Origin: Promethearchaeota archaeon
Lineage (GTDB): Archaea > Asgardarchaeota > Hermodarchaeia > Hermodarchaeales > Hermodarchaeaceae
Direction of reading: 5' to 3'
DNA: 32,000 nt
Assembly: GCA_048938295.1 (NCBI GenBank)
Contig: JBHLMI010000003.1
Span: 1-32,000 of the forward strand
Of the stretch, positions 144 to 17,182 are shown one piece after another; position 1 is the stretch's first letter; every line of letters starts with the position of its first letter. Position numbers and translations under genes: made by a program. Below the pieces are notes generated by a model. That model was not told the origin of the DNA. It did no database searches and saw nothing but the letters and a program-made list of their open reading frames with translations.

Positions 144-154
144 TGCAATTGAAG

Positions 155-180
155 GGTGGAGTGGACTGAAACACTCCACC
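155..180 (+). terminator. Hairpin downstream of the edge gene
   Basis: Perfect 9-bp inverted repeat GGTGGAGTG (155-163) / CACTCCACC (172-180) with an 8-nt loop, followed by a pyrimidine/T-rich stretch. Confidence 0.5.
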
Positions 181-229
181 TCCATCATTTTCTTGTTCCA
201 TAAAAAATAACGAAGGTTCTCACACAATC

Positions 230-260
230 TGGATCTCCGAAACGCTTTTACTCACAAAAT
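230..260 (+). repeat. Array repeat copy: left arm type L1 + core TACTCACAAA (249-258)
   Basis: TGGATCTCCGAAACGCTTTTACTCACAAAAT is 27/31 identical to 14693-14723. Confidence 0.85.
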
Positions 261-459
261 AGGCTTCGTACCATCTCGCTGCTTCTAATAATAATCGAGT
301 TGAACTCCTCGGATAAAGAAGCCCTCTTTGCTCTTCAGACGCTTCCACGTGCTAGAAATGGAGTTTCGGCATTTATCGCAAGTTCAGATGATATAAGGCG
401 TTCCATTATCTTCCTTTTGACTGACTGAATGCATCATTAGGAATATGGATTCACTTTTG

Positions 460-474
460 AACTCAGGTTGAGTT
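460..474. promoter_or_regulatory. Candidate operator palindrome upstream of merA
   Basis: AACTCA-GGT-TGAGTT, 31 bp before the merA ATG. Confidence 0.35.
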
Positions 475-505
475 GTGGTGTCTTAAACTAGGGTGTGCTT
501 GATAA

Positions 506-1897
506 ATGTACGATTTGGTCATCTTAGGTGCAGGTTCAGCTGGTTTTGCTGCAGCAATAAAGGCATCAGAACTTGGAAAACAGTTTGCACTAATTGAACG
601 CGGTGCCCTTGGTGGAACCTGCGTGAATGTGGGATGTGTACCTACTAAATTTCTTCTCCGTGTGAGTGACTTTTATTATTCCATTCGGGATTATTCATTC
701 CGAGGTGTCAACGGGGGCAGCCCCGTATTAGATTTCGTTCAAGTAATGGACAAGAAAGATGAACTAGTGCAATTCATGAGAAAAAACAAATATGAAGATG
801 TCCTGAACCATCTATCTGGGGGTACCCTATTTCACGGTGAGGGTTCGTTCATCTCGAGAAATGAAGTGAAAGTCGGTGAACAGGTTCTTAGAGCGAAGAA
901 ATTCCTCATTGCCACAGGAGCCTCACCACACATCATCAGCATTAAAGGGATACAAAAGGCAAAACCGCTAACAAGTACTACGGCATTAGAACTGCAGCAG
1001 CTACCAGAATCCATGATTGTGATTGGAGGGCGTGCCTTAGGACTTGAATTTGCTCAATTATTTGCGCGATTGGGGACTAAAGTAACCATCCTGCAACGGA
1101 GTTCCCGTATACTCCCTGCTGATGAACCGGAAATCACACAGGTACTCACCGACATTCTACGCGATGAGGGTATCCAAATTCTCACAGGTGTAAAAATACT
1201 AGAGGTAATTAAGAAAGGCAAGTCCAGTATTGTGAAGTTTCGTATGGGTAGCAAGGATAGGGATATTGAAGCCGAACAGCTGCTAATGGCAACTGGGCGT
1301 AAGGCAAACATTGAACATCTGGGTTTGAAAAATGCTAGGGTAGAAACTGAGAAGGGATTCGTGAAGACAAACGAGTTCCTGCAAACCTCGAATCCCGATA
1401 TCTATGCGGCAGGCGATTGTGCCTCACAAGTAATGCTTGAACCACTAGCGGCAAAAATGGGAAATCTGGCAGTAAGGAATGCCTTTGAGAATGCACGGTT
1501 ATCAGTGAATTGGAAGACGATTCCCAGCGTTGTGTTTACGAATCCCCAGGTTGCTAGGGTTGGTTTTACTGATGAAGAGTACTCATGCATAATGCAAATG
1601 TGTACGTGCAGAACTATCCCATTAGCGCTGCTGCCAAAGGCACATATCATCGATGATACCCGTGGCGTTATCAAAATGGTAACTGACTCGCGAACACTGA
1701 AGATCGTCGGCGTTCACATTGTTTCTTCCGAGGCGATGGAGATGATACACGAAGCCACGCTAGCTGTCAAGTTTGGCTTAACCGTTGATGACATCATTGA
1801 AACAGTACACGTTTTCCCCACTATGTCTGAAGCCATAAAATTAGTCGCTCAATCTTTCAGAAAGGATGTTACAAAACTGAGTTGCTGTTCAGAATAA
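506..1897 (+). CDS. merA: Mercuric reductase, short form without the N-terminal metal-binding domain
   Basis: GAGSAG FAD motif, redox centre GGTCVNVGCVPTK, and C-terminal vicinal cysteines in DVTKLSCCSE, which is diagnostic of MerA among class I pyridine nucleotide-disulfide oxidoreductases. Confidence 0.85.
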   Translation: MYDLVILGAGSAGFAAAIKASELGKQFALIERGALGGTCVNVGCVPTKFLLRVSDFYYSIRDYSFRGVNGGSPVLDFVQVMDKKDELVQFMRKNKYEDVLNHLSGGTLFHGEGSFISRNEVKVGEQVLRAKKFLIATGASPHIISIKGIQKAKPLTSTTALELQQLPESMIVIGGRALGLEFAQLFARLGTKVTILQRSSRILPADEPEITQVLTDILRDEGIQILTGVKILEVIKKGKSSIVKFRMGSKDRDIEAEQLLMATGRKANIEHLGLKNARVETEKGFVKTNEFLQTSNPDIYAAGDCASQVMLEPLAAKMGNLAVRNAFENARLSVNWKTIPSVVFTNPQVARVGFTDEEYSCIMQMCTCRTIPLALLPKAHIIDDTRGVIKMVTDSRTLKIVGVHIVSSEAMEMIHEATLAVKFGLTVDDIIETVHVFPTMSEAIKLVAQSFRKDVTKLSCCSE

Positions 1898-1956
1898 CAG
1901 CAAAGGATAGGCTGTTTCTGAGTGTGAATTATAGCACGTATTAGAAACACTAACAT

Positions 1957-1989
1957 TTTTACTCACAAACCCAAGCCTTACTGAACTTT
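1957..1989 (+). repeat. Array repeat copy: core + right arm R1
   Basis: TTTTACTCACAAACCCAAGCCTTACTGAACTTT is 33/33 identical to 13399-13431. Confidence 0.95.
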
Positions 1990-2048
1990 ATTCTTCGATT
2001 CTAAATTACATCTGTCAATTGTAAGTAAATATTCGAAAATTTGTCTGT

Positions 2049-2489
2049 TTAAAGCAATGATTTGGTTTTGTCAGGAAATCCTTTGTATTCAATAACGCCG
2101 AGTTGTTGATAGAAATCCATCAAATCAAAAACCTGCGTTACCTTTTCGATGACTTTCCCATTAGCAATCCGATAAACGACTATACCTGTCGAGGTGAATT
2201 TCTTACCGGTGGGAGCTAGTCCGTGATATTCTCCAGTGTGGGTTCCCGTACTTTTAATCTGAAACCATACAGTATCCCCATCCGCGGTGATGTGGGTAAT
2301 TGTCCGTTGGACATCAGGAAACCCCTTGTATATCGTTTTTTCCATTTTTTTGTAAGCGTCTCTTCCCTGCAATTTCATTGGATGATCTACAAAATCAGGG
2401 GCGATAATTTCATCGATTAGAGTTTCATCCTTGGTATTGAAGGCTTTGGCTAATTTCTGAACAAGCGCTTTGTTCGCCTCTATAGACAT
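2049..2489 (-). CDS. SnoaL-like ester cyclase family protein (NTF2 fold)
   Basis: EANKALV start, FPD..TI..I.ADGD.VW and GTHTGEYHGLAPTGKK are typical of the family. Confidence 0.85.
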   Translation of the reverse strand: MSIEANKALVQKLAKAFNTKDETLIDEIIAPDFVDHPMKLQGRDAYKKMEKTIYKGFPDVQRTITHITADGDTVWFQIKSTGTHTGEYHGLAPTGKKFTSTGIVVYRIANGKVIEKVTQVFDLMDFYQQLGVIEYKGFPDKTKSLL

Positions 2490-2598
2490 TGGACATCATA
2501 CTCCGAGTGTAAACCTGTTCAACATGTGAAATGAACCCATTGGATTTTAAAGGTATCAATTTACTAGCGGTTATTCTAGTTTAGATGGAGTTGATGTC

Positions 2599-3018
2599 TT
2601 GCTGAATGAAACGAGCCCAGAAAAGAACGCGTTGTTGAAAACAATTGCAGATCTTGATCGAACCTTTTCCGAAAATCGTACTGAGGGCATGGGTAAGTTC
2701 TTTGCCCCGAATGCGTGGCTCATGTTTCCCAATATGGAAGACATCTTAGGTCGAGAATCAATTCAACAAACGTTTGCTAGCTTAATGGCAGAATATTCAA
2801 CGGATTCATTTCACCCAAACCGGGAATTGATCGACATCTATGGGCACAGGGCATGCACTTTGGGAAGTTTCATAGAAATACGCACACCCCTCAAAGAGGG
2901 GCCGAAAGAGAAGATATACGGACGTCTTCTGGAAATCTGGCAACGCTCCTCTAAGGGCAACTGGGAGATAATCCGTTTCATGACTGGAAGGTATTCTGAT
3001 TTGGAACTTATTGAATAA
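2599..3018 (+). CDS. DUF4440/YybH-like NTF2-fold protein
   Basis: 139 aa; FFAPNA..MFPN...I.GRESI and GRLLEIWQR...GNWEI patterns. Confidence 0.7.
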   Translation: MLNETSPEKNALLKTIADLDRTFSENRTEGMGKFFAPNAWLMFPNMEDILGRESIQQTFASLMAEYSTDSFHPNRELIDIYGHRACTLGSFIEIRTPLKEGPKEKIYGRLLEIWQRSSKGNWEIIRFMTGRYSDLELIE

Positions 3019-3021
3019 CTG

Positions 3022-3077
3022 GTTGTACGACCGAGGCCTTTTTACTCACAAACCCAAGCCTAACTGAACCTTTTTTT
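3022..3077 (+). repeat. Array repeat copy: left arm L2 + core (3043-3052) + R1
   Basis: 3022-3068 is 41/47 identical to 7686-7732. Confidence 0.95.
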
Positions 3078-3931
3078 CACATAGGTTTTGTCGTACCAGA
3101 TGTTAATAAGATGATAATGATTGCAGCAAATAGAAGTGAATCTATCAGGATTTCGAACAGCCCATGAATGATTCGAAGTAAAACGGGAAATGCTGGATTT
3201 GGCAAAAACATCGTGATGCTTGGCAAGTAGAGTGCAAACGCAAGCAGCAGGTATAGTTCTTTGGTTTCTACTTTGAGTGATACGAGAATAGGTAACAAGG
3301 CTAGAATGTAAAGAAATCCTCGTGATATCTCTACAACAAGGATCACCCATACTGGAGGAATTCTAAGCCCCGTCCCCATATCCAGGTAGAAGGGAAGAAC
3401 AATCGGGCTAATGAGGGTGCCGATGCCATAATAAATCACTAAATACAGGACTGCGGTCAACACAAACCGCCAGAGCCAGTCATACCACGGGCGTCCAGCG
3501 AAGTAACTTCTAATTTCAGTTCGTAACGAGCTATCTGTCGTATTGGGTGGAAACATAAAGGCAATGAAAAGGGCGTGTAGGAAACTGATAAGAAGCCCAA
3601 ACATCGCTGCTGCGAGAAGCAATGCTTCAGTTAAAATCGTGGTGAATAGGTAGCCTTCAATCATGGTGGTAAACCATTGAATGATGAAGAGCAGAAACCA
3701 ACCAACCCCAATACGCACCAAACGAGAATAATACAAATGTGAGAAAATTAAGCCAAATACGAAACCAATAGCAGTACCAATGACAAAATCGATGATCACT
3801 TGGTGTGGAAGAAAGGGACCTGCCATCGTTAGTGTCAGGTCTGTCAGGACAAACAACACCGCAAAGACAATCACTCGAAGCAGGAAACTCGTATCTAAGG
3901 TTGCTTTTAGCTCCATTACCCTAACATCCAA
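3077..3931 (-). CDS. Multi-pass membrane protein of unknown function (start may be ATG at 3916)
   Basis: 284-aa ORF with about 8 hydrophobic segments; its stop abuts the repeat at 3077. Confidence 0.75.
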   Translation of the reverse strand: MDVRVMELKATLDTSFLLRVIVFAVLFVLTDLTLTMAGPFLPHQVIIDFVIGTAIGFVFGLIFSHLYYSRLVRIGVGWFLLFIIQWFTTMIEGYLFTTILTEALLLAAAMFGLLISFLHALFIAFMFPPNTTDSSLRTEIRSYFAGRPWYDWLWRFVLTAVLYLVIYYGIGTLISPIVLPFYLDMGTGLRIPPVWVILVVEISRGFLYILALLPILVSLKVETKELYLLLAFALYLPSITMFLPNPAFPVLLRIIHGLFEILIDSLLFAAIIIILLTSGTTKPM

Positions 3932-4014
3932 TAGATTGAACGCTTATAGTCGAATGAACTTGAATAAAAGATGCTCGAATAATAATTCTAGGGATAACTA
4001 TTTGGTTTTTTCAT

Positions 4015-4054
4015 AACGCTTTTTATTCACAGAATCTGGAAACGCTCACATTAT
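4015..4054 (+). repeat. Variant-type array repeat (type B), copy 1
   Basis: TCACAGAATCTGGAAACGCTCACATTAT (4027-4054) is 26/28 identical to 4550-4577. The preceding AACGCTTTTTATTCACAGAAT resembles AACGCTTTTACTCACAAAAT at 241-260. Confidence 0.8.
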
Positions 4055-4174
4055 ATAGCGAAGGGTTTCTACAGGAAAAAGAATATTGTATCTAGTTACT
4101 TGTGAAGGATCTATGTAATATTATTGGTAAACATATTGAAAGAATTGGATGAGCAAAATTCTCAACTTAGACTT

Positions 4175-4297
4175 CTAATTTGTACCCATTCGTTGCTTTT
4201 GGGTCCATTTCCATTTTTGCTTTCGTGCTCTCTCGTCTTCTTCTTCAACTACTCTTTTCTTATCCGATTCTGTTTTTTTATCTTTTTTATCGGTCAT
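4175..4297 (-). CDS. 40-aa highly charged small protein, below the ORF-track cutoff
   Basis: MTDKKDKKTESDKKRVVEEEDERARKQKWKWTQKQRMGTN*. RBS-like GTGAGG precedes the ATG and a TATA-like TTATATTA lies on the minus strand at 4338-4345. Confidence 0.55.
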   Translation of the reverse strand: MTDKKDKKTESDKKRVVEEEDERARKQKWKWTQKQRMGTN

Positions 4298-4535
4298 TGT
4301 ATCAATTCCTCACTTTTATGGGGTCGACCATAAACGCTAATATAAGTATGTCTCATTGCCGATTTGAAATAGGATTTTATTTATTATCAAGAACATTTCT
4401 CCTTGGTTTTACGGAATTAAAATCACAATCGAATGCCCGTATGATATTAGTAGCATTTTTATTCAGTAAATGCGAGTGTTTCCCTATACTTTCTTTTATT
4501 TAGTTCAAAGACTGTTTATGTTCAGATTTTAGCGA

Positions 4536-4577
4536 AACGCTAATATTGCTCACAGAATTAGGAAACGCTCACATTAT
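4536..4577 (+). repeat. Variant-type array repeat (type B), copy 2
   Basis: AACGCTAATATTGCTCACAGAATTAGGAAACGCTCACATTAT; see the copy at 4015-4054. Confidence 0.8.
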
Positions 4578-4677
4578 CTGGAATAGAATATTATGACATT
4601 TTTAGGCCAGTAAATTGCCTTTTGATAGATGTTTGGGGTTAAAGCTTGGGATCCTTAACCACGCCAACTACATTTTT

Positions 4678-5064
4678 TTAAAAGGAATAACGTCTGTATC
4701 TCGAGGTAGCGGTTACAGGTTTTCCGGTTGCCATTTCGAAACCTCGAGAACCCAATTTTGCTACCCAAGACCATATCGTTAGAAACGCATCTTGAGCAGG
4801 TGTTTCTTTTATGTTTGAGCCGATGCCGATTTCTGGGTTTTTCAGGATGCGTTTAATTTGATCAGAGCGGATGGGTTTGGTCTGTTGTTGAAACCAGTTG
4901 TCAATGAGGTGGAAGCGATCGTATGATCGGGGCATGGTGCGGTTTGGGTTATTGTAGGGCTGCATGGAAGGCGAAAAGAAGTGGTTGGTGATTATTCCAA
5001 TCCCGTCTTGTGGATAATGAACAGAGATATTCTGTTGAGCTGCTTCAATTATGGCAATGTCTAG
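4678..5064 (-). pseudogene. 5'-truncated C45/acyl-CoA:6-APA acyltransferase-like (Ntn-hydrolase) C-terminal fragment
   Basis: The frame is open from 5064 with no proper start: DIAIIEA...TNHF...SYDRF...TIWSWVAKL...MATGKP...SRY, matching the C-terminal half of C45 peptidases as I recall them. Confidence 0.55.
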
Positions 5065-5210
5065 TTATTTGTAGATATCCATGTGATCTAATTCTTATCC
5101 AACCTTTTCTTTGAACTTACCATCAACAATGTCTTAAACGAAAAAGACCAGTGAAAGAATTTTTCCACTTGCAAGGTCCATCCATAGCATTCGTCAATGA
5201 GTATTCATTG
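5056..5210 (-). pseudogene. Decayed paralogue of the SnoaL-like gene at 2049-2489
   Basis: IVDGKFKEKVG*ELDHMDIYK*LDI aligns ungapped to IANGKVIEKVTQVFDLMDFYQQLGV with 11/25 identities. Both TAA stops (5065-5067, 5095-5097) sit at Gln positions; frameshifts lie further upstream. Confidence 0.75.
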
Positions 5211-5279
5211 CCCTTAAGTAGAATGTTGGGGTATTCTATTAAAGTACATGCAAGCCATTGAATAAGGAAGGTTTTACGA

Positions 5280-6299
5280 ATGTCTTCTTCAAAGATTTTG
5301 GGATACGCAGCGAGTGCAGTGGGACAAGAACTCGAGCCATTCACCTACGAGCCACCCAAACTGGGGGATCATGATGTCCGGGTCTCGGTAACACACTGCG
5401 GTTTGTGCCATTCTGATATTCAGGCCGTCGACGACTACTACGGAATAACCACGTTTCCCTTTGTCCCCGGTCATGAGATCGTCGGGTATGTGTCGGATGT
5501 GGGCGGTGCGGTATCCGGTCTGAAGGAAGGTGACCGGGTCGGCATCGGATGGCAAGGGCGTTCGTGCATGCAATGTGAATGGTGCGTGCAAGGCGAAGAG
5601 CAACTCTGCATGGACATTGTCAAATCCGGGACATGGGTTCCATATGGGGGCTTCTCGTCCTCTGTTCTTGTTGATAGCCGTTTTGCCTACCCACTGCCTG
5701 ACGCCATGCCCTCTGAGGTAGGCGCGGTGCTCATGTGCGCCGGAATAGCAGTATACTCCCCACTTCGATCGTACGCAACGCGACCCATGCAGAAAATTGG
5801 CATCATCGGCGTGGGAGGGCTAGGCCACCTTGCATTACAGTTCGCTCACGCTCTGGACTATGAAGTAACCGCCTTTTCCTCCTCTCCTAAGAAGAGAGAA
5901 CAGGCGTTTGCCTTTGGTGCGGATCACTTCATCGTTTTAGACGACCAGACCAACTTGCAGCAGTTTGAGTTCAGCTTCGACTTGCTACTATGCACCTCCA
6001 CTGGCAAAATCAACTGGGAGCCCCTGTTGAGCTCCTTGAAGAAAAAAGGAAAACTGGTCCTTGTTGGCTTTCCAGAGTTAGCGCTCAATCCAACTGACCT
6101 CGTAGCACACCAGCTGTCGATCACTGGTTCGTTCCTTGGCAATCGAGCCACAATGCGTGAGATGCTATCCTTTTCACAGATGCACAGCATCGCGCCTAAG
6201 TTGGAGTTAATGCCTATGACTGAAGTAAACAAAGCGATTCGGAAGGTGAGAAAGAACAAAGCACGCTACCGAATCGTCCTAGTCAACGACATTGGCTAA
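5280..6299 (+). CDS. Zn-dependent NAD(P) alcohol dehydrogenase (cinnamyl alcohol dehydrogenase/Ahr-like)
   Basis: CGLCHSD, GHE, structural Zn CxxCxxCxxxxxxxC, GVGGLG Rossmann motif and C-terminal ARYRIVL. Confidence 0.92.
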   Translation: MSSSKILGYAASAVGQELEPFTYEPPKLGDHDVRVSVTHCGLCHSDIQAVDDYYGITTFPFVPGHEIVGYVSDVGGAVSGLKEGDRVGIGWQGRSCMQCEWCVQGEEQLCMDIVKSGTWVPYGGFSSSVLVDSRFAYPLPDAMPSEVGAVLMCAGIAVYSPLRSYATRPMQKIGIIGVGGLGHLALQFAHALDYEVTAFSSSPKKREQAFAFGADHFIVLDDQTNLQQFEFSFDLLLCTSTGKINWEPLLSSLKKKGKLVLVGFPELALNPTDLVAHQLSITGSFLGNRATMREMLSFSQMHSIAPKLELMPMTEVNKAIRKVRKNKARYRIVLVNDIG

Positions 6300-6310
6300 G
6301 TGGAAGCCTA

Positions 6311-6360
6311 AACATCCGATACGCTTCTACTCACAAATCCAAGCCTTACCTATTTTTTTT
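6311..6360 (+). repeat. Array repeat copy: L1 + core (6328-6337) + R1-like arm
   Basis: AACATCCGATACGCTTCTACTCACAAATCCAAGCCTTACCTATTTTTTTT. Confidence 0.9.
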
Positions 6361-6588
6361 AAAAAAATGGAGAAGTAACTTGAAAAATCGGTTTACGGAT
6401 CGATTTCTCAAAAATTCATGGCGTGGATAGGCCCACTACAATTGTTCTCATTACTTTGTAGGCGTCATTCTTTTTGCAAATGGTTGACAGGGAATGATTG
6501 CCTCATTCAAAAATAATTAAACAAAATTGGACAAAATCAATGCGCCGTATGCGATCCTTAAAGCATACGCCATTGGAGGTTTTACTTA

Positions 6589-7542
6589 GTGAAGCACTTG
6601 TTTCAATATTGGCGCCATCTACGCACAGTTAGTGCTTTATATGAGGAAGGGAAGTATCAAGAAACTATAGATTTTCTAAAAGAAGTAGCTACAGACTTTC
6701 CTGACTTCAAACCTGAAATTTATTACACTCAGATGGCGGCAGCAATAAAACTCGACAAATACGACCTGTTCTTCGAGTTACTCAACGAGATCCTAGATGC
6801 TGGCGGCTGGTATTCTGAAACCATTTTGCGTGAAAGCCCCGCCTTCAAACCCCTACAAGGCATGTCTGAATTTGAAAGACTCGTCCCCATCAACGTAGAA
6901 CGTGCCAATCAAGCATCAAAGCACCATACTAACTTTACCATGTTCCCAGAAACCACCAGCGCTTCTATGCCCCTAATGCTAGCTCTCCACGCCCAAGCCA
7001 GCGTCATCAACGAAGAATACCAGGCATGGAAAACAGTCGGTGACCACGGCTACATACTTGGAATGCCCCAAACCATTAACAGGTACTGGTCAGGAATCGC
7101 TACTGGGTACTGGCCAGACTATGAAACATCAATTCACCAAATCAAAGCCTTTGTCGATACAATCAACCTAAACAAAACACTTGACCTAGAACACTCTATT
7201 GCTGGCGGGCTTTCAATGGGAGGTGATCTCGCCATCAGGCTCGCACTCACAGGAACAATACCTGTATGTGGCTTCATCGCTGTTTCCCCCGGTGGTCCAT
7301 GGATGAACGAACCTGAAAAATGGAAACCCCTAATAGACGATGTCAGACGTCACGACATCAAAGGCATCATCATCCGTGGCAAAGAAGACCAAGCAATCCC
7401 GCGAAAATACACCCAAACACTCACGAACATGTTCAACAATAGCGGTATCCCATGCCAATTCCTCGAATATCCAAAACTCGGTCACTGGTACCCTCCCAAC
7501 TTCGCTGACACCATAGCGAATTTCATAAACAATATTAAATAA
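6589..7542 (+). CDS. Alpha/beta hydrolase (phospholipase/carboxylesterase-like) with a helical TPR-like N-terminus
   Basis: Nucleophile elbow GLSMGG, EDQAI and LGHWYP near the C-terminus; RBS GGAGG before the GTG start. Confidence 0.75.
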   Translation: MKHLFQYWRHLRTVSALYEEGKYQETIDFLKEVATDFPDFKPEIYYTQMAAAIKLDKYDLFFELLNEILDAGGWYSETILRESPAFKPLQGMSEFERLVPINVERANQASKHHTNFTMFPETTSASMPLMLALHAQASVINEEYQAWKTVGDHGYILGMPQTINRYWSGIATGYWPDYETSIHQIKAFVDTINLNKTLDLEHSIAGGLSMGGDLAIRLALTGTIPVCGFIAVSPGGPWMNEPEKWKPLIDDVRRHDIKGIIIRGKEDQAIPRKYTQTLTNMFNNSGIPCQFLEYPKLGHWYPPNFADTIANFINNIK

Positions 7543-7685
7543 CCACTTTCCCAAGCAAGCACAAAAAGAGTTTTTTTCTTTCACCCACAATACCCGCGTG
7601 ATCAGCAACGCCTTTGCCCCTATTTACCTCTGTTAGTTGACGGCTATAATTGGTGAGTCCACAAGTTCTGGATATCCAATCAATC

Positions 7686-7738
7686 GTTGTACGACCGACG
7701 CCTATTTACTCACAAAGCCAAGCCATACCGAATTTTTT
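7686..7738 (+). repeat. Array repeat copy: L2 + core (7707-7716) + R1-like arm
   Basis: 41/47 identical to 3022-3068. An L1-like TCTGGATATCC also lies just upstream (~7667-7677). Confidence 0.92.
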
Positions 7739-7816
7739 CTTTTTTCATTCATAGTCAAGGATTTTAAACCGTATTGCCACTTAATGCAAAAATTAGGTTA
7801 AATCCAAAAAAAGGAG

Positions 7817-8182
7817 ATGACAAATAAATTGAGCAATACTGAAACTTCGTTAATGCTGGTAAAGGTTGGCACTTGGCTGCAGATTCCATTCTCATTCTTT
7901 ATAATCGCTATTATGGTCTGGCTGTATTGGCTTCTTTGGCCGATTTTGATTGATCCAATATTTTGGGTAGCTTTTGGAGGATGGACAATGGCCCTCCTAG
8001 GGTTTGAAATCTTTGCAGGTATATTTGGACTAGGTCTCGCAATTCTTTGGTTTCGATGGCGACACGATATACCAAACCACAAGCAGGCCTTGGTAAAGAC
8101 CGGAATTGTCGGTATGATTTTCACAGGAACGGTCCCCGGCTTACTTGTGCTAATTGGGGCCGTCATCCACCCAACGAAGTAA
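7817..8182 (+). CDS. Small membrane protein of unknown function
   Basis: 121 aa with 3 hydrophobic segments; GGAG directly before the ATG. Confidence 0.7.
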   Translation: MTNKLSNTETSLMLVKVGTWLQIPFSFFIIAIMVWLYWLLWPILIDPIFWVAFGGWTMALLGFEIFAGIFGLGLAILWFRWRHDIPNHKQALVKTGIVGMIFTGTVPGLLVLIGAVIHPTK

Positions 8183-8249
8183 AAGCGAAACCACTTTATG
8201 ATAATGCACAAAAGTCTAGGCGGATACAAAATTATTGAGGATATGAGTT

Positions 8250-8456
8250 ATGCCAGTTGTTCACGTCCATGTATGGAAAGGATTCTCGGAAGAAAAGATT
8301 AATGAGATAATTACGGGAATAACGAATGTATTTATCAAACTCGGTATCCCCTCACGTGCAGTAGAAGTAATTATTCATGAAATCCCCAAAACACATTGGG
8401 GAGTTGATGGCAAACCAGCAACACAATCGCTGAAGGATTGGCACCCACCTGAATGA
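8250..8456 (+). CDS. 4-oxalocrotonate tautomerase family protein
   Basis: 68 aa with catalytic Pro after Met (MPVVHV), V.VIIHEIPKTHWGVDG motif, and RBS GAGG. Confidence 0.88.
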   Translation: MPVVHVHVWKGFSEEKINEIITGITNVFIKLGIPSRAVEVIIHEIPKTHWGVDGKPATQSLKDWHPPE

Positions 8457-8549
8457 CCTTTTTTTGTCACTACTCGTAACTCACCTTTGCTCACAAACAC
8501 CATTACATAGTGATGTCTACTCAATGAATTAACCATTTCCCAACTTGTG

Positions 8550-8600
8550 AACACCTGATATGCTGTTACTCTCAAACCTAAACATTAATGGAATTTTATT
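8550..8600 (+). repeat. Degenerate array repeat copy (L1-like + core TACTCTCAAA + R1-like); a partial core also lies at 8486-8500
   Basis: 8566-8600 aligns to 1959-1992 at 28/35 (one gap). Left arm AACACCTGATATGCTG resembles AACATCCGATACGCTT at 6311. Confidence 0.7.
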
Positions 8601-8807
8601 ACCTGTGTGAAGCTGTTTCAATAAATTATTGCGTGTTTTTATTCGACTGGTGTTAATACTATAAAACGGTTCTTTCATCTAACTGGCTTTGTCAATTCAG
8701 AATGAAATTGATCTAAGGCAAAGTGAAATTCTCATTGTGGACTATAACTTGATTGGGCGTTGGTGTATTTCACCCAATAATTGAAACAAGACCTTATGCA
8801 CTACTAC

Positions 8808-9386
8808 TTATTTTCGGAGCGCTTGAACGAAGTAGATGAAGGCTAAAAGATAGACGATGATCAACCCTGCAAATCGTAGTTGAGTCCAAATTGGTAGTGG
8901 TGATTCGTACCCTAAGAACCCAATTATGAGATAGAGCACACTCCAAATCATGAAAATGATTCCAGTTATCGTCGCAATAATTCCAATTTCGTCACGTGTT
9001 ATCCAGATTGAGAAGCCAATCACTAGAAAAATAATCAGATAGAATATCCAAAAGATCCAACTTAGATAGAGATTTGCTGTAGCAGCGTCTAGAAAGGTTA
9101 GTAAGAGCGGAAACAGAATATTAAATTCTAGCAAAATTACGAGTAGTTGCAGAATAAGAAGTAATATCACGGCGATGAGAGGTATCTTTCTACCGGTTTC
9201 TCGGGAGATACCGATTATTGCAATGGCAACGAGAATGAGTGCAAGAATAGTAACCCACTCTAATATTGGAACGGATGGGACAGCGAATAGAAGCGAATAT
9301 AGATTAAATGCAAACACTATGACAACAAGAAGACTTCCAATCGCACCGAGTGCAAATAAAACATTGTTCGTAGAATCTTTTCCCAT
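8808..9386 (-). CDS. Multi-pass membrane protein (start placed at ATG 9386 rather than 9482)
   Basis: GAGGTGG RBS precedes ATG at 9386 (MGKDSTNN...); about 6 hydrophobic segments. Confidence 0.75.
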   Translation of the reverse strand: MGKDSTNNVLFALGAIGSLLVVIVFAFNLYSLLFAVPSVPILEWVTILALILVAIAIIGISRETGRKIPLIAVILLLILQLLVILLEFNILFPLLLTFLDAATANLYLSWIFWIFYLIIFLVIGFSIWITRDEIGIIATITGIIFMIWSVLYLIIGFLGYESPLPIWTQLRFAGLIIVYLLAFIYFVQALRK

Positions 9387-9524
9387 TGTATGCCACCTCG
9401 ACACAATTGTAATGGTCGAGAAAATATTATTGAATCGAACTCCTATAAAACGCTTTAAACAATATATACTCAAACCTAGCATAATTGTAAAGCACTTAGT
9501 GACACTAGCATAAGGAGAGGAGGT

Positions 9525-9875
9525 CTAGCCAAGACGAGGATGAAACATAACAACTTTGTTCTTCTCATCGACTCTCAATATCTGGCCCATATGACTCAAA
9601 TCAACCATTATGGTGTTATCGACATTTGGAATAGAGCCAGATCGTAGTTTAGGGGCCTTAGAGCTGGTTGGAATAAGCGCGAGATTGTGTTCGTTTGCAA
9701 GTTGGACCAGCTGTTGAATTTCTTGGCTAGTCTGGAGATATGCAATTAACTGGGGGCGTCTTCCATGGAAGATATTTTGGTTATTTGTAAACAAATCAAG
9801 AGCTTCTTCTTGGGTTGAGATGTTTTCCTGACCAACAATTTGTGTGATTTCTTCACTAAGATTTTTGGCAGGCAA
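9525..9875 (-). pseudogene. 3'-truncated FAD-binding oxidoreductase (FAD_binding_4 / VAO-PCMH family) N-terminal fragment
   Basis: IVGQENIS, P.LIAYLQT.QEIQQLVQLANEHNLALIP and IMVDLSHMGQIL.VDEKN; stops just where the EPGV motif is expected (FHPRLG*). AAGGAG RBS precedes TTG at 9875, giving about 116 aa of a normally much longer protein. Confidence 0.7.
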
Positions 9876-10000
9876 TAGGCAAATCTCCTTGAGTAAAGAG
9901 TTGCGTACACCTTGAGAGAACATATTAAGACTTGATGCTTCAACTATTGTATTCACTCAAAGTAGAAAGTCTATTGATTTCAGTCTCTGGGTGAGAAATT

Positions 10001-11710
10001 GTGCCTAAAATAATGCAGATTGCTTCCCTCGTCTCTCCGTTATTCCGATTAAAGAATTATCTAGGAAGAGCCATTGCTCAACCGATACGACGTCATTTCG
10101 CACCAAAGCCTTCTGATAAAACATATGAACTAGGCAAGTGGAACGATGAGGCAAATGTACAGACGAAGTATGGTTTAGTTCGTGGGTTTTCAGATAAGGG
10201 TACATGGTGTTGGAAAGGAATTCCCTATGGCACTCCTCCAGTGGGAGAATTAAGATGGAAGGCACCCCTTGATCCTATCCCTTGGCTCGGAACGCGCAAG
10301 ACAACTAGATTTGGTAACTCTGCAGCACAGGTTATGCCCATCATGGGTTCAACAGGTTCAGAGGATTGTCTTTACCTTAACATATGGCGTCCTAAAAGCT
10401 CGGAAACGGAACTACCGGTTTACTTGTATATTCATGGGGGAGGCAATTCCATTGGCTCATCAGCCACGCCAACCTACTACGGTAATACCGTGGCTGATAA
10501 ATCGAACTTGATGTATATTTCTGTCAATTACCGACTTGGTGCAATGGGTTGGTTCAAGCACCCTGCTGTGACGGGTTCTGGTTCTCCAGAGGATCAGAGT
10601 GGGAATTATGGAACCTTAGACTTGGTGAAGTCCTTAGAGTGGGTCAAGGAGAATATCAGAGCTTTTGGGGGCAACCCAAATAATGTCACAATTGCGGGTG
10701 AGTCTGGAGGCGCGTTCAATGTACTTTCACTCTTGGTGTCTCCCTCTGCAAAGGGACTATTCCATCGAGCCGTTGTTGAAAGTGGTATGACATCAATTTG
10801 TAGTATTGAGGAAGCAACAGCCCAGAGTGAACAACTTCTGGCTGCCCTTCTTATTAGTGATCGAAAAGTTGCGAATGAAGATGAGGCTGTAAGGTACATC
10901 AGCGAAATGCATGATGATGAGATTAATACCTATCTACGTTCGAAATCAGCCTTCACAATTACGAAGAACATTCCTACCATGGTTTTGGGAATGGTACAAT
11001 GGCGATCTATTATTGCTGATGGTATAGTTCTCCCTGCAGAGGGTTATAGTGTTTTTTCTTCTGGCGAATGGGCAAATATGGTGCCCGTGATTATAGGTTG
11101 CACAAAGGATGAAATGAAACTCTTTGGTCAATTTATGGAAGACCTTCCTCAGAGCTCCAGGATTTGGGAGTATCAGTCCATGCTCTGGCGTGCAAACGGC
11201 GTCCATAAACCAGCAGCCGAAATGACCTCTAAAAGCAAAATCCCTGTTTATGTTTACAGGTTTGACTGGGGAAGCCCTGATGAAAAAGGCGTGAGTGTCC
11301 TACCAAAAAACAAAGGTCACGAACTAGGGGCTTACCATGGCTCTGAATTGCCCTTCTTCTTGGGAACAAGTGGATCCGATTTTGCTTTTCTGATAGGAAA
11401 GATGCACACAAAAGAAAACCAGATCGGTCGTGAAAAACTGAAAGACTTGTGCATGAACTATCTGGCGAATTTTGCGAGAACAGGGAATCCTAATAACATT
11501 GACTTACCAAATTGGCCTACTTGGGATAGCACTGAAGGAAAAGTCAAGGTTCTTGTCCTTGATGCAGATTTCAACGAATTGAGACTTTCATACTCAAGTG
11601 AAAAAATCACAGTTCAAAATGTTCTAGCCCTCGTTAATTCTGAGCTCGAAGAACCCGAACGAGGACAGGTATTGACATTGCTCGAAAATTTCATTGCTTT
11701 TAGAAAATAG
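10001..11710 (+). CDS. Type-B carboxylesterase/lipase (para-nitrobenzyl esterase-like)
   Basis: WKGIPYG, LRWKAP, SEDCLYLNIW, HGGG, GESGG (Ser), GCTKDE (Glu) and HGSEL (His). Confidence 0.93.
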   Translation: MPKIMQIASLVSPLFRLKNYLGRAIAQPIRRHFAPKPSDKTYELGKWNDEANVQTKYGLVRGFSDKGTWCWKGIPYGTPPVGELRWKAPLDPIPWLGTRKTTRFGNSAAQVMPIMGSTGSEDCLYLNIWRPKSSETELPVYLYIHGGGNSIGSSATPTYYGNTVADKSNLMYISVNYRLGAMGWFKHPAVTGSGSPEDQSGNYGTLDLVKSLEWVKENIRAFGGNPNNVTIAGESGGAFNVLSLLVSPSAKGLFHRAVVESGMTSICSIEEATAQSEQLLAALLISDRKVANEDEAVRYISEMHDDEINTYLRSKSAFTITKNIPTMVLGMVQWRSIIADGIVLPAEGYSVFSSGEWANMVPVIIGCTKDEMKLFGQFMEDLPQSSRIWEYQSMLWRANGVHKPAAEMTSKSKIPVYVYRFDWGSPDEKGVSVLPKNKGHELGAYHGSELPFFLGTSGSDFAFLIGKMHTKENQIGREKLKDLCMNYLANFARTGNPNNIDLPNWPTWDSTEGKVKVLVLDADFNELRLSYSSEKITVQNVLALVNSELEEPERGQVLTLLENFIAFRK

Positions 11711-12029
11711 ATTAGCTTCAATTCTGTTCTTTTTTATTCAACCTATGCAATTTGCTTGATGCGGTTTGAGACACTCATACCGTATTTATTTTGTGCTAAT
11801 TCCCTGAATACGACTAACGGGCCTCTAATCATTTGATCTTGTATACATTATTACGTGTTTTTCCTTTTGTAGAAAGAGACAACTATGGTCCCAAACATTT
11901 CTTTAAAACCTTTAATTAACATGCTAGTGTTGAATGGGAAATATCACGTTGGAAACCCATATTTCTGATTGTGTACATCTGTAACATTTTAGGCAAAAAT
12001 CCATAAACACCGAATCATTTACAACTTGC

Positions 12030-12578
12030 ATGCAATTCTATCCTCAAGATGCGGCTGTTCCAAAAGAACTGCGAACGGAAGAATTCCATATACGTCCTCT
12101 TAGAGTGAGTGATGCAAAGATTGACTATGCAGCAGTGATGGATAGTAAATCCATGCTACGGATAATGAGTCAGAGTACATGGCCATCAGATGATTTTACC
12201 TTAGAGATGAATAGAAAAGACCTAGAGGAACATGAACAAGAACACGATGAACGCATTGCATTCACCTACACTGTTCTGGATCCCACCGAATGCATTAGCT
12301 TAGGGTGTGTTTATATCAGGAACTTGACGGAAGGTCCGATGAAAGGCGACCATGTGGCTCAGCTTCGTTTTTGGATCCGTCAGCCGTACTTAGATCAAGA
12401 TTTAGATAAACTGCTGTTGAAGCGCCTAATTGACTGGTTCAAAAACGACTGGGCCTTTTCACATGTTATCTTTAGTGTTGCTGATGAAGATAAAAGACAA
12501 ATTCAGCTTGCAACCGAGTTGGGTCTACACCTCGTCCATGCATACGGAAACCGATGGTCAGAATTTCTCATCAAATGA
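12030..12578 (+). CDS. GNAT-family (RimJ/RimL-like) acetyltransferase
   Basis: IRPL..SDA..DYAAVM, FTYTVLDP....LGCVYI and FWIRQ patterns. Confidence 0.7.
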   Translation: MQFYPQDAAVPKELRTEEFHIRPLRVSDAKIDYAAVMDSKSMLRIMSQSTWPSDDFTLEMNRKDLEEHEQEHDERIAFTYTVLDPTECISLGCVYIRNLTEGPMKGDHVAQLRFWIRQPYLDQDLDKLLLKRLIDWFKNDWAFSHVIFSVADEDKRQIQLATELGLHLVHAYGNRWSEFLIK

Positions 12579-12624
12579 CTCTACCTTGACATGCTCCAGT
12601 TGTAGAATCAGTAACAAGGATATA

Positions 12625-13284
12625 CTAAATTATTGAAGCAATCATTAGCCAGCCACCTAAGACTATTTCAAATATGAAAATTAACAGACCTCCAATAGTC
12701 CACAGGATTTTAAAGTCGGGTTTTAGAAGTTGTATCCCGTTGCCCAAGCCATAGAGAATGCTGGCCACAATTCCAAACCATCCAATAATTACTGGTACAA
12801 CACCATAAATTACGAAAAGGACCGAGTATGTGATCGTACCAATAGAGAACAAGATCTGTGCAATTCTGAAACTAGTATTTTTTGATTTGAGGATGTTAAG
12901 GCCTAAATCAATTAACTCGTTTTTTTCAACACCACTATTACCTGAGTATTGTCTTGCTATATTGAAAAGCCCCCAGTAATTTCTTTTATTATAAATTTGA
13001 ATCAAGCCTTCTCCTATTCGAAAGACTGTCCAAACCACTGCGAGTATTATGTTATAGGGACTAAAAGTAAAAAACAACAAGACAGCAAGTGCAATTATGC
13101 TACCATGCTCTATGAGGATTAATACGACGCTAATTTTGAATTTCTTTGGATCATTGTTAATCTGTTGTAGTTTAGTGTCTGCGTCCAAATCACTAAATGT
13201 TTCATAACCAAATCTTACACTTGCAAGGTTTGTAATTATAATCAACCAAAAGAAAAAACCGGATAAGAACATCTGAATAATCAT
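12625..13284 (-). CDS. DUF4386-like membrane protein
   Basis: 219 aa, hydrophobic; FRIGEG, P.IIGWFG and FE..LGGWL patterns. Confidence 0.6.
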   Translation of the reverse strand: MIIQMFLSGFFFWLIIITNLASVRFGYETFSDLDADTKLQQINNDPKKFKISVVLILIEHGSIIALAVLLFFTFSPYNIILAVVWTVFRIGEGLIQIYNKRNYWGLFNIARQYSGNSGVEKNELIDLGLNILKSKNTSFRIAQILFSIGTITYSVLFVIYGVVPVIIGWFGIVASILYGLGNGIQLLKPDFKILWTIGGLLIFIFEIVLGGWLMIASII

Positions 13285-13398
13285 AAAATCACATTTTTAG
13301 AAATAAACAGAACGCTAACTTGTTGCATTTTATTAGAATATAAGGCTTAACTTCTTGAACTGGGTATTAACAGAGGTTATTTGGTCATAGCATAATGC

Positions 13399-13431
13399 TT
13401 TTACTCACAAACCCAAGCCTTACTGAACTTT
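13399..13431 (+). repeat. Array repeat copy: core (13402-13411) + R1
   Basis: 33/33 identical to 1957-1989. Confidence 0.95.
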
Positions 13432-13648
13432 TCTTGTAAGTATGTAAAAACGATGCTAAAAATTGGAGAGGTTTATTCACCTGTTTTGTAATAATACGAA
13501 GTTTTGTATTTTCTTAATTTTCAGTCCTTTGCCAATCCTGAATGAAATCTTTCTCAGGAAAAGTGAAATACAATTTGTGAAAATGACTAACATGTGGTGC
13601 CTGTGTAATCTGTCCAATGATTGATATGAAACTTCGTGCTAATGCTGT

Positions 13649-13775
13649 TTAGCTTTGGAACGCTTTGAGGAAATAAACGAATGTAAAATTGATAGACGAT
13701 AACCAACCTTGCGAACCTTAGTCGAGTCAAAATTGAAGCTGGTAACACGATTACATAAGAGCTAATGAGAGGTCA
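13649..13775 (-). pseudogene. 3' remnant of a paralogue of the membrane-protein gene at 8808-9386
   Basis: 13691-13735 is 37/45 identical to 8849-8893. It translates ILTRLRFARLVIVY...(frameshift) TFVYFLKAFQS* versus IWTQLRFAGLIIVYLLAFIYFVQALRK*. Confidence 0.8.
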
Positions 13776-13799
13776 TACTGTGGGAACTATTATGTGAGG

Positions 13800-14618
13800 T
13801 TAACGGGGAAAGGCATAGGATTGGTAGTATTCAAGATTAACAATAATGCAATTAGTTATGGAAGATGCATAGTTAGCAAAGAATATTTGTCTACTCAGCA
13901 CTGTGTAATGAATGGGAACAAAATAACGGGGTTGGATAGTCTGCAACGCTTCCAGCACTTGATCACCACTATTGCAATCGATGCATAATAATGCGACATC
14001 AATTGTTCCTGTTAGCTGGGAGTACTCTCCGATATTTCTGGAATCGCCAGAATGGAAAATAGTGAATCCTCCAACATCAATGATATAACTAGTCCAATTG
14101 TTCTCTCGAGGATGCGTCGTTTGAATTGATTCCTCAGCAGGATAATAAGCATAGAAAGCGGTGACATTGATAGCCCCGAATTCTAACCCATCCCCGGGAT
14201 TGATACCAATTCCCTCATAAAGGGCAATCGCATCCGACATGCTCTCTGGAAACACATTTACTGTTCCCTCTTTTTGCAGCAAGTCAATGGAAGTGGTCTG
14301 ATAATGATCAAAATGAGGGTGGGTAATCAAAATCACATCAGCGGGTAATGCTTCAAAACTCTCAGGAAGATTATAGGGATCGATATAGATACGTAATCCA
14401 TAGGCTTCAATCTTCACCCCAGCAATGTCGAGTAGTTGAAACTGCACTGAATTTACATTCATCAACATTAACGCGGAGAGAGGGACAACCACCGCGATAA
14501 CAGCAATAACTCCGACACTAATAATGATCTTAGATCGTTTTTCTCGTACCATGGTTTTAGTTCTAATTTGGCTTACTATATCTACTTGGAATCCGGTCAG
14601 TTCGGATTCTCGCATCAT
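13800..14618 (-). CDS. Membrane-anchored MBL-fold metallohydrolase (UlaG-like); start is probably ATG at 14552
   Basis: IYIDP, ITHPHFDH (HxHxDH), FHSGD and PIHY; one N-terminal TM helix after MVREKRSK. Confidence 0.85.
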   Translation of the reverse strand: MMRESELTGFQVDIVSQIRTKTMVREKRSKIIISVGVIAVIAVVVPLSALMLMNVNSVQFQLLDIAGVKIEAYGLRIYIDPYNLPESFEALPADVILITHPHFDHYQTTSIDLLQKEGTVNVFPESMSDAIALYEGIGINPGDGLEFGAINVTAFYAYYPAEESIQTTHPRENNWTSYIIDVGGFTIFHSGDSRNIGEYSQLTGTIDVALLCIDCNSGDQVLEALQTIQPRYFVPIHYTVLSRQIFFANYASSITNCIIVNLEYYQSYAFPR

Positions 14619-14692
14619 ATCCTAAATTCTGGTAAAAAACCGGAACCGATTAGTTCGGGATAAGGATTGAGAAGGTATTTTCAACAACATAA

Positions 14693-14723
14693 TGGACATC
14701 CGATACCCTTTTACTCACAAAAT
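14693..14723 (+). repeat. Last array repeat copy: L1 + core (14712-14721) running directly into the htrA leader
   Basis: TGGACATCCGATACCCTTTTACTCACAAAAT is 27/31 identical to 230-260. I saw no further exact core in 14.8-32 kb. Confidence 0.88.
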
Positions 14724-14737
14724 GTGACTAATTCAGT

Positions 14738-15685
14738 ATGCCAATTCCCACACATCCTTTTCAACAAGAGCTCATTCAAGCTGTGAAACGTGTAACACCG
14801 AGCGTTGTTAGCGTGAGCACAGTCGCGCTCATGCGGGATTATTATCGGGTTCATCCGGTTGGAGGCATGGGTTCAGGTGTCGTCCTAGATGATCAGGGAC
14901 ATATCATTACGAATCGTCATGTGATTTCTCGGGCGCAACGGATCTTGGTTGCAGACACTAAGGGGGGTCGTCATGATGCAACGCTGCTTGGAGGGGATCA
15001 GCTGATTGATATTGCCGTGCTGAAAGTGGCTGATGGTGTGCTGCAACCAGCTGTGCTGGGCGATTCCGATGAGTTGGAAGTAGGGCAGCTGGCGATTGCA
15101 ATAGGGAATCCATATGGATTCATTCTCGGTGGCCCAACTGTGACTACAGGTGTGATTAGTGCGGTGCAACGCCAAATCCAAGCGAAAAACATCATTTTGG
15201 AGAAGCTGATTCAAACCGATGCCGCTATCAATCCTGGGAACAGTGGTGGCCCCTTATGTGATATTAACGGGCGCGTGGTGGGAATTAACACTGCGATGTT
15301 GCCCTTTGCGCAGGGAATCGGATTTGCTATTCCGATTAATACAGTGAAAGAGATTGCTGAAGAGATTATTGAGTTTGGTCATGTGCGCCGATCCTACATG
15401 GGGTTTTTCGGAGTAGGGGTAAATTCACAGATTGCTCGCACCTATAAGCTGGCAGTGACGGAGGGTGTGCTCGTGGCACAAGTGGTGGAGTCGAGTCCGG
15501 CATCGAGGGCTGGATTACGGGAAGGCGACATCATTACGGCCTTTGATGGGGAAAAGATTGCGACAATGGGAGAAATTCAGGAAAGGCTACGGAAACGCTC
15601 AATGGGTACGCGTATTGATGTGACCGTGGTCCGGGGTCGTAATCAGCGTGTGTTATCCCTTATTCTGGGTGAGGTTCCAGGATAA
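14738..15685 (+). CDS. htrA: HtrA/DegP-family trypsin-like serine protease with one PDZ domain and no signal peptide
   Basis: GSGVV, TNRHV (His), DIAVLKV (Asp), IQTDAAINPGNSGGPL (Ser) and PDZ V..SSPA.RAGL.EGDII. Confidence 0.93.
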   Translation: MPIPTHPFQQELIQAVKRVTPSVVSVSTVALMRDYYRVHPVGGMGSGVVLDDQGHIITNRHVISRAQRILVADTKGGRHDATLLGGDQLIDIAVLKVADGVLQPAVLGDSDELEVGQLAIAIGNPYGFILGGPTVTTGVISAVQRQIQAKNIILEKLIQTDAAINPGNSGGPLCDINGRVVGINTAMLPFAQGIGFAIPINTVKEIAEEIIEFGHVRRSYMGFFGVGVNSQIARTYKLAVTEGVLVAQVVESSPASRAGLREGDIITAFDGEKIATMGEIQERLRKRSMGTRIDVTVVRGRNQRVLSLILGEVPG

Positions 15686-16829: not shown

Positions 16830-17136
16830 ATCAACTCACCTAGATACAGCAAATTGTGTTTCTGGCATAAAAGAGAAGCTGACGTTTAATTAATCTGCTC
16901 AAGGCCGTATCGCATCAGTCAATACAACCCTTGGTTTCACTATTATTTGAGTTGTATTTTCGAGTGAAGTTGGAGGAGCCCCCAAATAGAGATTGTCATC
17001 TATGGCCATAGACCTCAGAATATATCCAGATTATACAATAACCATTGTATTCTGCCAAAAAGTGTCACAATAACATGCTAAAGTGCCAATATCTGAGAAC
17101 TTATTCGCCGTTAAGCTGTAAATGTATGAAGTTTTG

Positions 17137-17170: not shown

Positions 17171-17182
17171 GGTTGAGGGGGA

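Follow-up and report, generated by a model that had tools for sequence, protein, structure and literature searches.

A putative gene-cassette array with modular junction sites upstream of an htrA-like gene in an Asgard archaeon

Integrons are the textbook platform for gene capture by site-specific recombination. The pdif modules of Acinetobacter plasmids and the integrative mobile elements exploiting Xer (IMEXs), such as CTX, TLC and the gonococcal island (GGI), use host XerCD at dif-like sites; in the TLC and GGI sites, one arm binds well and the second is degenerate, and homology is limited to one side of the central region. The sfx sites of the shufflon recombinase Rci are asymmetric, and their conserved core with one conserved and one variable arm gives them polarity; these sites are inverted, and inversion takes place within one gene. 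Archaeal integrons were found in 2022 by Ghaly et al. through attC structure and IntI; they are mostly attC clusters without an integrase, and Asgard archaea are enriched in them (PMC9668308). In a 2021 review of archaeal tyrosine recombinases, the word "cassette" does not occur (PMC8371274). Here we analyzed the first 32 kb of contig C32 (the window) in genome G000 of a Promethearchaeota archaeon, a 2.5-Mb metagenome-assembled genome (MAG) of 66 contigs that is 91.6% complete. For one protein encoded there, the nearest relatives bear Asgard names (Thor-, Heimdall-, Prometh-, Hermod- and Lokiarchaeota). Window positions 1-14731 are probably (at roughly 0.7 by our estimate) the right-hand part of a gene-cassette array whose units are moved by conservative site-specific recombination in a 10-bp core. 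The array is integron-like in the comparative data, yet it fails the defining integron tests. A limited literature search found no description of this site or of an array built in this way. Below, W followed by a number gives a window coordinate, G with a number is a genome of the comparison set, and L with a number is a fetched locus or contig.

The core TACTCACAAA marks ten junctions between positions 230 and 14731, all on the same strand. When the window was searched with the pattern TTTACTCACAAA allowing at most one mismatch, eight matches were obtained, all on the plus strand; 0.27 matches were expected by chance, and none of 100 shuffled sequences reached eight. A one-mismatch match at 8486 was judged not to be a real site. 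The initial annotation of this DNA had described the core together with left arms L1 and L2 and a right arm R1, and every repeat copy that it quoted was confirmed at its coordinates on the plus strand. Thus, L1 adjoins the cores at 249, 6328 and 14712, L2 those at 3043 and 7707, and R1 follows the cores at 1960, 3043, 6328, 7707 and 13402; the TTACTGA of R1 lies 19 bp past the TTACTCA of the core, as had been claimed. The list of sites was correct but incomplete, because it lacked two junctions at 4024 and 4547 that have slightly worn cores and an R2-type right arm. The copy given for 8567 (TACTCTCAAA) is weak when taken alone (nhmmer E 0.6). However, the orthologous cassette in another genome (W 7699-8622 corresponds to L029) has a good site at this place (L029:3066), and 8567 is therefore a decayed site.

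For comparison, a set of 63 sites from 10 genomes was assembled from 19 fetched contigs, one further NCBI assembly and 10 metagenome contigs, one of which is labelled SMTZ1. The consensus of these sites consists of a left arm of about 20 bp, the near-invariant TACTCACAAA, CCCAAGCCTTACTGAA and a T-run. Left arms fall into the classes L1 (ending ATCCGATACGCTTT), L2 (ending CGACCGACGCCTTTT) and L3, in addition to unique arms. Right arms are R1 (CCCAAGCCTTACTGAA and the T-run), R2, the chromosomal flank (Rf) and rarer types. In the R2 class, which is present in seven other loci, the core ends in AGA and is followed by ATCACGCAACGCTCACATT.

In the whole G000 genome, copies with recognisable arms are confined to C32:230-14731 and a minus-strand site at C34:151. 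Since the window begins at the contig start, the array is truncated there. The C34 site lies 150 bases from the contig end, and this end carries cassettes with a 530-amino acid (aa) gene and a flavodoxin gene that lie within arrays of other genomes. Because of this site and these cassettes, the array runs past the window start and probably continues on C34. In G014, the leftmost R1 adjoins sequence without a core.

The initial annotation had proposed that left and right arms combine independently. A co-variation test on the 63 sites bore this out, and every combination of a left-arm class with a right-arm class was seen. With R1, R2, Rf and other right arms, L1 is joined at 13, 2, 1 and 2 sites, L2 at 10, 3, 1 and 1 sites, and L3 at 2, 1, 4 and 3 sites, respectively; unique left arms are joined to R1 at 19 sites and to R2 at one. 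No association between L1/L2 and R1/R2 was detected (Fisher p = 0.64), a value that is descriptive only because sites of related genomes are not independent.

The proposed unit of core, right arm, cargo and left arm was also recovered, as exactly such stretches are common to several genomes. Clustering of the DNA between sites gave 13 cassette families, each present in two to seven genomes with varying neighbours and order. For example, the dehydrogenase family F2 precedes the hydrolase family F3 in G000 and follows it in G011, and F2-F0 in G012 and G006 corresponds to F0-F2 in G005. In alignments between genomes, the homology of shared cassettes begins and ends at the core. Window positions 1-258 are 95-96% identical to L017 and L032 through the last base of the core and then diverge, the same left part being joined to R1 in those loci. 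The right arm of junction 1 recurs in metagenome contig L062 behind another left arm. The SnoaL cassette (1960-3043) is 94-96% identical in G012 and G014, where it has other left neighbours, and the hydrolase cassette (6328-7707) is 85-94% identical in five other loci with four different right neighbours; homology of the hydrolase unit begins three bases ahead of the core. The left arm of junction 5 is joined straight to the htrA flank in G003, and that of junction 9 is joined to R2 at L021:213.

The shared cassettes, non-coding parts included, are 77-96% identical between genomes. In contrast, the syntenic flank (W 14712-31000) is only 66-76% identical between G000 and G012, G014, G006 and G010. 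This difference argues that the cassettes have passed between species of the genus long after these species diverged.

Logan contigs of four sediment runs were compared with window 1-16500. No clean excision or circle joint was present in them, and the contigs break at the identical 27-nt stretch of core and R1. Extra depth over the esterase, dehydrogenase and DUF4386 units fits the presence of these units in several co-occurring strains, for which it is weak evidence. A skip from 3069 to 9968 (depth 4) was considered as an excision joint and rejected, since it is better explained by a related strain in which the esterase cassette retains a 5′ end of its own.

The position of the crossover was analyzed with a linkage test. 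For each pair of sites with a common rare base, we scored whether the pair had only the same left arm or only the same right arm. At positions -2 and -1, rare bases were common to 33 and 26 pairs with the same left arm only, against 7 and 9 pairs with the same right arm only. The balance was reversed at core position 9 and position 11, where the pairs with the same right arm only prevailed (10 against 0 and 236 against 1, respectively); core positions 1-8 are too invariant for this test. G at core position 9 goes with R2 in nine of the ten R2 sites, whatever the left arm. In two pairs of metagenome sites (L061:1146 and L054:3862; L059:108 and L054:5182), an identical 30-base left arm is joined to R1 (AAA) in one contig and to R2 (AGA) in another. 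Since variants before the core follow the left arm and variants from position 9 follow the right arm, the exchange is confined to the 8-9 bases of TACTCACA(A), within the core interval that had been named beforehand. Target-site duplication was rejected as a model, because the G9 variant occurs only at the R2 side and is missing from the opposite end of that unit.

A unit consists of the 10-bp core, a right arm, zero to three genes in either orientation and a left arm of about 20 bp that ends in TTT. Units stand head to tail, and at each junction the left arm of the preceding unit meets the core and right arm of the following one. The array is anchored at a fixed chromosomal site 16 bp upstream of the htrA-like gene, in an operator-like palindrome. 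These results suggest the following mechanism. Strand exchange, located in TACTCACA(A), would be conservative, an excised unit would form a circle carrying left arm, core and right arm, and this circle could re-insert at any core, so that units may pass between species of the genus. The housekeeping XerA is, by elimination, the leading candidate for the enzyme.

The right end of the array is defined by the terminal core, which is followed by ATGTGACTAA and not by R1; the ATG of the htrA-like gene lies 16 bp past this core. The core forms the left half of a 21-bp palindrome at 14711-14731, TTACTCACA-AAA-TGTGA(C)TAA, which we call the anchor. In G003, G006, G010, G012, G013 and G014, synteny with the window starts exactly at the terminal core, with the sequence TTACTCACA-AAA-TGTGAGTAA. 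The anchor palindrome is thereby kept in seven genomes, and its left partner differs among them: L1 in G000, the arm of another cassette in G003, L2 in G013 and L3 in four genomes.

A second palindrome, TTAGTCACA-ATA-TGTGAGTAA, is located at C32:105801-105821. It lies in the region C32:105156-106497 (L048:2157-3498), where a gene for an HTH_20/ArsR-family regulator is divergent from a 223-aa gene without a family, and the spacer of this pair contains a TATA-like box, then TTACTCACAAAC ahead of the palindrome. Of 14 other genomes of the genus, 12 retain this locus; a reversed control pattern gave no matches. A third copy of the palindrome is present at C26:26790. The second palindrome is a probable autoregulated operator of the HTH_20/ArsR regulator, with a half-site equal to the array core. 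Because the palindrome is conserved at the divergent promoter of the regulator and the reversed control never matches, the core is most likely half of the operator of that regulator, and the array would have grown inside the control region of htrA. The palindrome did not fit the Pyrococcus Phr consensus, and no link to Phr is claimed. At C26:29096-29124, a near-perfect palindrome (ATGTTTACTAA-N-TTAGTAAACAT) stands beside a TATA-like box in a divergent promoter region of 77 bp; it, too, resembles an operator and has TTTACT in common with the array core.

A geneless unit of about 100 nt has L3 as its left arm; in L051, this unit has the core-like start TACTCACTAA. The right arm of this unit carries an inverted GAGTA, TATA-like boxes are present just upstream of the core, and together with the core the L3 arm makes up an inverted repeat of 10 bp. 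The L3 unit may be the native htrA promoter region acting as a small mobile promoter cassette. L3 units were observed at L021:5120-5201, L022:10606-10716, L026:5925-6035 and 6355-6465, and L051:19300-19408, often beside htrA and sometimes duplicated.

The junctions, cassettes and genes of the window are listed in Table 1.

Table 1. Junction sites, cassettes and cargo genes in the first part of the window
Feature	Position	Strand	Description
Junction 1	230..272	+	L1-type left arm, core 249-258, atypical right arm; opens the pyridine-nucleotide oxidoreductase cassette
Seven cassettes	259..8566		between junctions 1 and 8; cargo on either strand
Pyridine-nucleotide disulphide oxidoreductase	506-1897	+
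Junction 2	1941..1992	+	unique left arm, core 1960-1969, R1 and T-run
SnoaL	2049-2489	-	in one cassette (1960-3043) with DUF4440
DUF4440	2599-3018	+	in one cassette (1960-3043) with SnoaL
Junction 3	3022..3075	+	L2, core 3043-3052, R1
284-aa protein	3077-3931	-	no family
Junction 4	4005..4056	+	worn core TATTCACAGA (4024-4033), R2-type right arm
Gene-poor unit			523 bp, among the cassettes of 259..8566
Junction 5	4528..4580	+	core TGCTCACAGA (4547-4556), R2-type right arm
Zinc alcohol dehydrogenase (Zn-ADH)	5280-6299	+
Junction 6	6309..6360	+	L1, core 6328-6337, R1; between alcohol dehydrogenase and hydrolase cassettes
Alpha/beta hydrolase	6589-7542	+
Junction 7	7686..7739	+	L2, core 7707-7716, R1
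143-aa protein	7798-8229	-	no family
Junction 8	8548..8599	+	decayed site TACTCTCAAA (8567-8576)
Compound block	8577..13401		at least three fused cassettes, internal junctions lost
Two genes of compound block		-	unknown/fragmentary
Carboxylesterase	10001-11710	+	in compound block
GNAT	12030-12578	+	in compound block
DUF4386	12625-13284	-	in compound block
Junction 9	13383..13434	+	unique left arm, core 13402-13411, R1
Last cassette	13412..14711		holds the metallo-beta-lactamase-fold gene
Metallo-beta-lactamase-fold gene	13800-14618	-
Terminal junction and anchor	14693..14731	+	L1, core 14712-14721, chromosomal right half
htrA-like serine protease gene	14738..15685	+	Trypsin_2 and PDZ; first conserved chromosomal gene right of the array

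The cargo belongs to unrelated families of accessory enzymes encoded on both strands, and several cassettes hold at least two genes; the GC content of the cassettes ranges from 0.32 to 0.47. Domain searches of the cargo found no recombinase among the cassette-encoded proteins. In the compound block, sites are absent from the window at about 9960, 11837 and 12600, and orthologous cassettes of other genomes retain them; elsewhere, the carboxylesterase (9963-11817) and GNAT (11937-12592) parts each form a cassette of their own whose sites are intact. The loss of junctions at 9940-9968, 11817-11937 and about 12600, by which at least three cassettes were fused into one block of 4.8 kb, is a case of site erosion. 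Esterase homologues of other Asgard lineages (L049 and L050) have no such sites and gave no clue to the origin of cassettes. Within the window, 8687-8893 and 13527-13735 are 77-82% identical (repeat families D7 and D8); the latter copy comes directly after the metallo-beta-lactamase-fold gene and resembles a decayed fragment of the gene at 8808-9482.

To learn how widely such arrays occur, genomes were searched with the core and the start of R1, and clustered copies on the same strand were counted; a reversed control gave almost no matches. Of 14 other genomes of the genus, nine had such clusters, as did one of four genomes of the sister genus, and none of 22 genomes from other families of the phylum carried them. 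Arrays are also present in the further NCBI assembly and the 10 metagenome contigs mentioned above. The sister-genus locus L034 has one weak site and no array, and no exact match to core and R1 was found in viral contigs.

As in integrons, accessory-gene cassettes form a polar array at one chromosomal site with hybrid junctions, cassettes are shared and reordered between related genomes, the cargo is rich in enzymes, and some cassettes contain no gene. Each cassette would carry one complete site if it were circular, and the sites are uniform in sequence within the lineage, like the Vibrio VCRs. In contrast to integrons, the array has no IntI, and its sites have neither the attC hairpin fold nor RYYYAAC/GTTRRRY boxes. 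DNA folding of eight sites gave z-scores from -2.2 to +1.8 without a common hairpin; since the folding is no better than that of shuffled sequence, the sites are not attC. Furthermore, the crossover lies in the middle of a composite site and not at its 3′ edge. The cassettes often hold several genes on either strand, whereas integron cassettes are mostly single promoterless open reading frames facing one promoter. The anchor is in the promoter/operator region of a housekeeping-type gene and not beside an integrase gene.

Two other kinds of repeat were considered for the sites. A C/D-box small RNA encoded by L1-core-R1 was rejected, as the C box fits poorly and L2 has none. A dispersed repeat of the miniature inverted-repeat transposable element (MITE) or repetitive extragenic palindromic (REP) type was also rejected, because the real copies are all in one array and it is the DNA between the copies that genomes share. 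No Rfam family (E up to 1) and no tRNA was found.

Like the Xer-dependent elements, the units are mobile without a recombinase of their own, are bounded by short sites, and occur in a host that has a Xer protein. The single good arm and the one-sided homology resemble the TLC and GGI sites. However, the junction sites are not 11-6-11 palindromes as pdif sites are, and all of them are in direct orientation, whereas pdif sites alternate. The sfx sites of Rci are similar in having a conserved core with one conserved and one variable arm; in the present array, the sites are in direct orientation and have whole genes between them.

Some site-specific recombinase likely acts in the core. G000 encodes two tyrosine recombinases, XerA and a 443-aa protein. 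XerA has 313 aa (C32:33154-34095), scores 262.7 bits against the NF040815 cut-off of 220, and is encoded 18.4 kb to the right of the anchor. The xerA gene was found in all five other array-bearing genomes searched, at 15.7 kb from the anchor in G012 and 16.8 kb in G014, and in these two genomes and G000 it is syntenic with the array; it is the only recombinase gene common to all six. The divergent 443-aa recombinase (C33:7137-8465, minus strand; locus L003:1096-2427) was rejected as the enzyme of the array because it is found only in G000, and none of 18 genomes from the family encodes a relative; it probably belongs to a strain-specific mobile element. No IntI is present in G000, the best match to TIGR02249 being XerA itself (154 bits, cut-off 265), and no Y1 transposase, serine recombinase or IS110 enzyme was found in this genome. 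At the array itself, none of the array contigs showed a tyrosine recombinase. By elimination, XerA is thus the leading candidate, although we consider its role possible rather than likely.

The known archaeal dif is an 11-6-11 site that does not necessarily adjoin xerA (PMC2958812). In G000, scans for 11-N5-8-11 palindromes and for sites of the ATAA-N6-TTAT type gave no convincing dif of the genus for comparison. The C26:29096 palindrome was considered and set aside, since it sits in a divergent promoter and is operator-like. Downstream of xerA, at a distance of 200 bp, there is a 27-nt inverted repeat (C32:34298-34353; L002:2264-2319) with 74% complementarity and 2 nt between its arms; it is not obviously dif-like.

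Several points weigh against conservative recombination in the core, or against XerA as its enzyme. No recombination event, circle or empty site was seen in the compared genomes and contigs, the G000 sequence stops short of the array's left end, and the sites of related genomes are non-independent observations. R2 also follows two TGCTCACAGA cores whose left arms differ; unless these cores are parallel mutations, they would place the crossover further to the left. In the junction sites only a single half-site is good, and the anchor forms a 9-3-9 palindrome that can also be read as 8-7-8; both are unlike the 11-6-11 palindromes of XerA-type dif, which counts against XerA, and the lack of a dif from the genus removes the direct comparison. 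All compared genomes are incomplete MAGs (72-92%), so that a dedicated recombinase may be unassembled. Finally, another polar repeat, GTATGTCTTCGAAA with about 40 conserved bases upstream, is present in seven copies over 44 kb at C66:254-44761 (minus strand). Its site is different from that of the present array, with its 10-bp core, modular arms and operator-like anchor at the 5′ end of a gene, and an array with an unrelated site in the same genome is awkward for one sequence-specific enzyme.

The C66 array is more easily accommodated if the repeats of about 50 bp serve as portable homology for general homologous recombination, since arrays with unrelated repeats in one genome would then not need many specific enzymes. 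Full L1-core-R1 sites do share up to about 50 bp at 80-90% identity, and in a flank as diverged as 66-76% the conserved repeats would be the sole usable anchors. However, the arms that meet in the L3-R2, L1/L2-flank and unique-R1 joints have no more than the 10-12 bp of the core in common, a length insufficient for this process. The arms are discrete classes and not mosaics, and linkage switches in one short interval instead of being spread along the arms. We therefore regard homologous recombination as improbable, though it is the strongest of the rival explanations. Insertion of single-stranded units 3′ of a short target such as TTAC, by an HUH-type enzyme of the IS200/IS605 or IS91 kind, would account for the strict polarity of the units without target duplication, and TTAC occurs both in the core (TTTAC/TCAC) and 19 bp further on in R1 (CTTAC/TGA). 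Such an enzyme is missing, however: besides the absence of a Y1 transposase gene from G000, no HUH enzyme is encoded on the array contigs examined. The sites have no subterminal hairpins and fold no better than shuffled sequence, which leaves this explanation quite unlikely.

Archaeal transcription terminates at T-runs. It is conceivable that the repeat is a regulatory element of each module, an operator half-site with a T-run terminator or a promoter, and has no role in recombination. The core is indeed half of a palindrome at two or three G000 promoters that is conserved in the genus, R1 is followed by a T-run, and the L3 arm has TATA-like boxes just upstream of the core. What this explanation leaves unaccounted for are the homology borders at the core in 13 cassette families, the single orientation of the sites despite cargo on both strands, and the confinement of the armed motif to one locus. 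Regulation alone is thus a slightly poorer explanation than HUH-type insertion, but a regulatory role of the core and recombination in it could coexist. Least probable of all, to the point that we give it hardly any weight, is tandem duplication of one ancestral unit followed by decay. Some sites have decayed or been lost (8567, about 11837 and about 12600), as such a history would predict; however, the cargo consists of unrelated families, the arms do not co-vary, and the order of cassettes varies by genome. Conservative site-specific recombination in the core accordingly remains the reading that we prefer.

An array of this kind would be invisible to integron surveys that look for attC hairpins and IntI. 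If the mechanism holds, gene-cassette capture arose more than once, and a concrete route of gene flow exists within the Asgard archaea, which are the closest known relatives of eukaryotes. Candidate enzymes could then be tested directly on a DNA site that is short and well defined, with its core of 10 bp and its palindromic anchor of 21 bp. In addition, the anchor overlaps a probable operator, which suggests that the promoter of the protease gene downstream can be rewired by the insertion of cassettes. More tentatively, and with the balance of our judgement somewhat against the full claim, the locus may be an integron-independent platform for gene capture, in which species exchange cassettes that have modular half-sites, and XerA or an undescribed recombinase inserts them at the operator-like palindrome before htrA; it may also be one of several locus-specific arrays of this genome. 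In that case, archaea would have a general route of gene collection that attC-based searches do not see.

Two observations were made in the flank to the right of the anchor. A 910-aa LVIVD-repeat gene at 17183-19915 is present in G000 and absent at the syntenic position in G012 and G014, whose alignment to the window skips from W 16842 to W 20114 around it. The overlapping genes at 23035-24966, labelled as a longin-like and Rab-like GTPase pair in the initial annotation, lie in the conserved flank and are syntenic with G012, G014, G006 and G010 at 67-70% identity.

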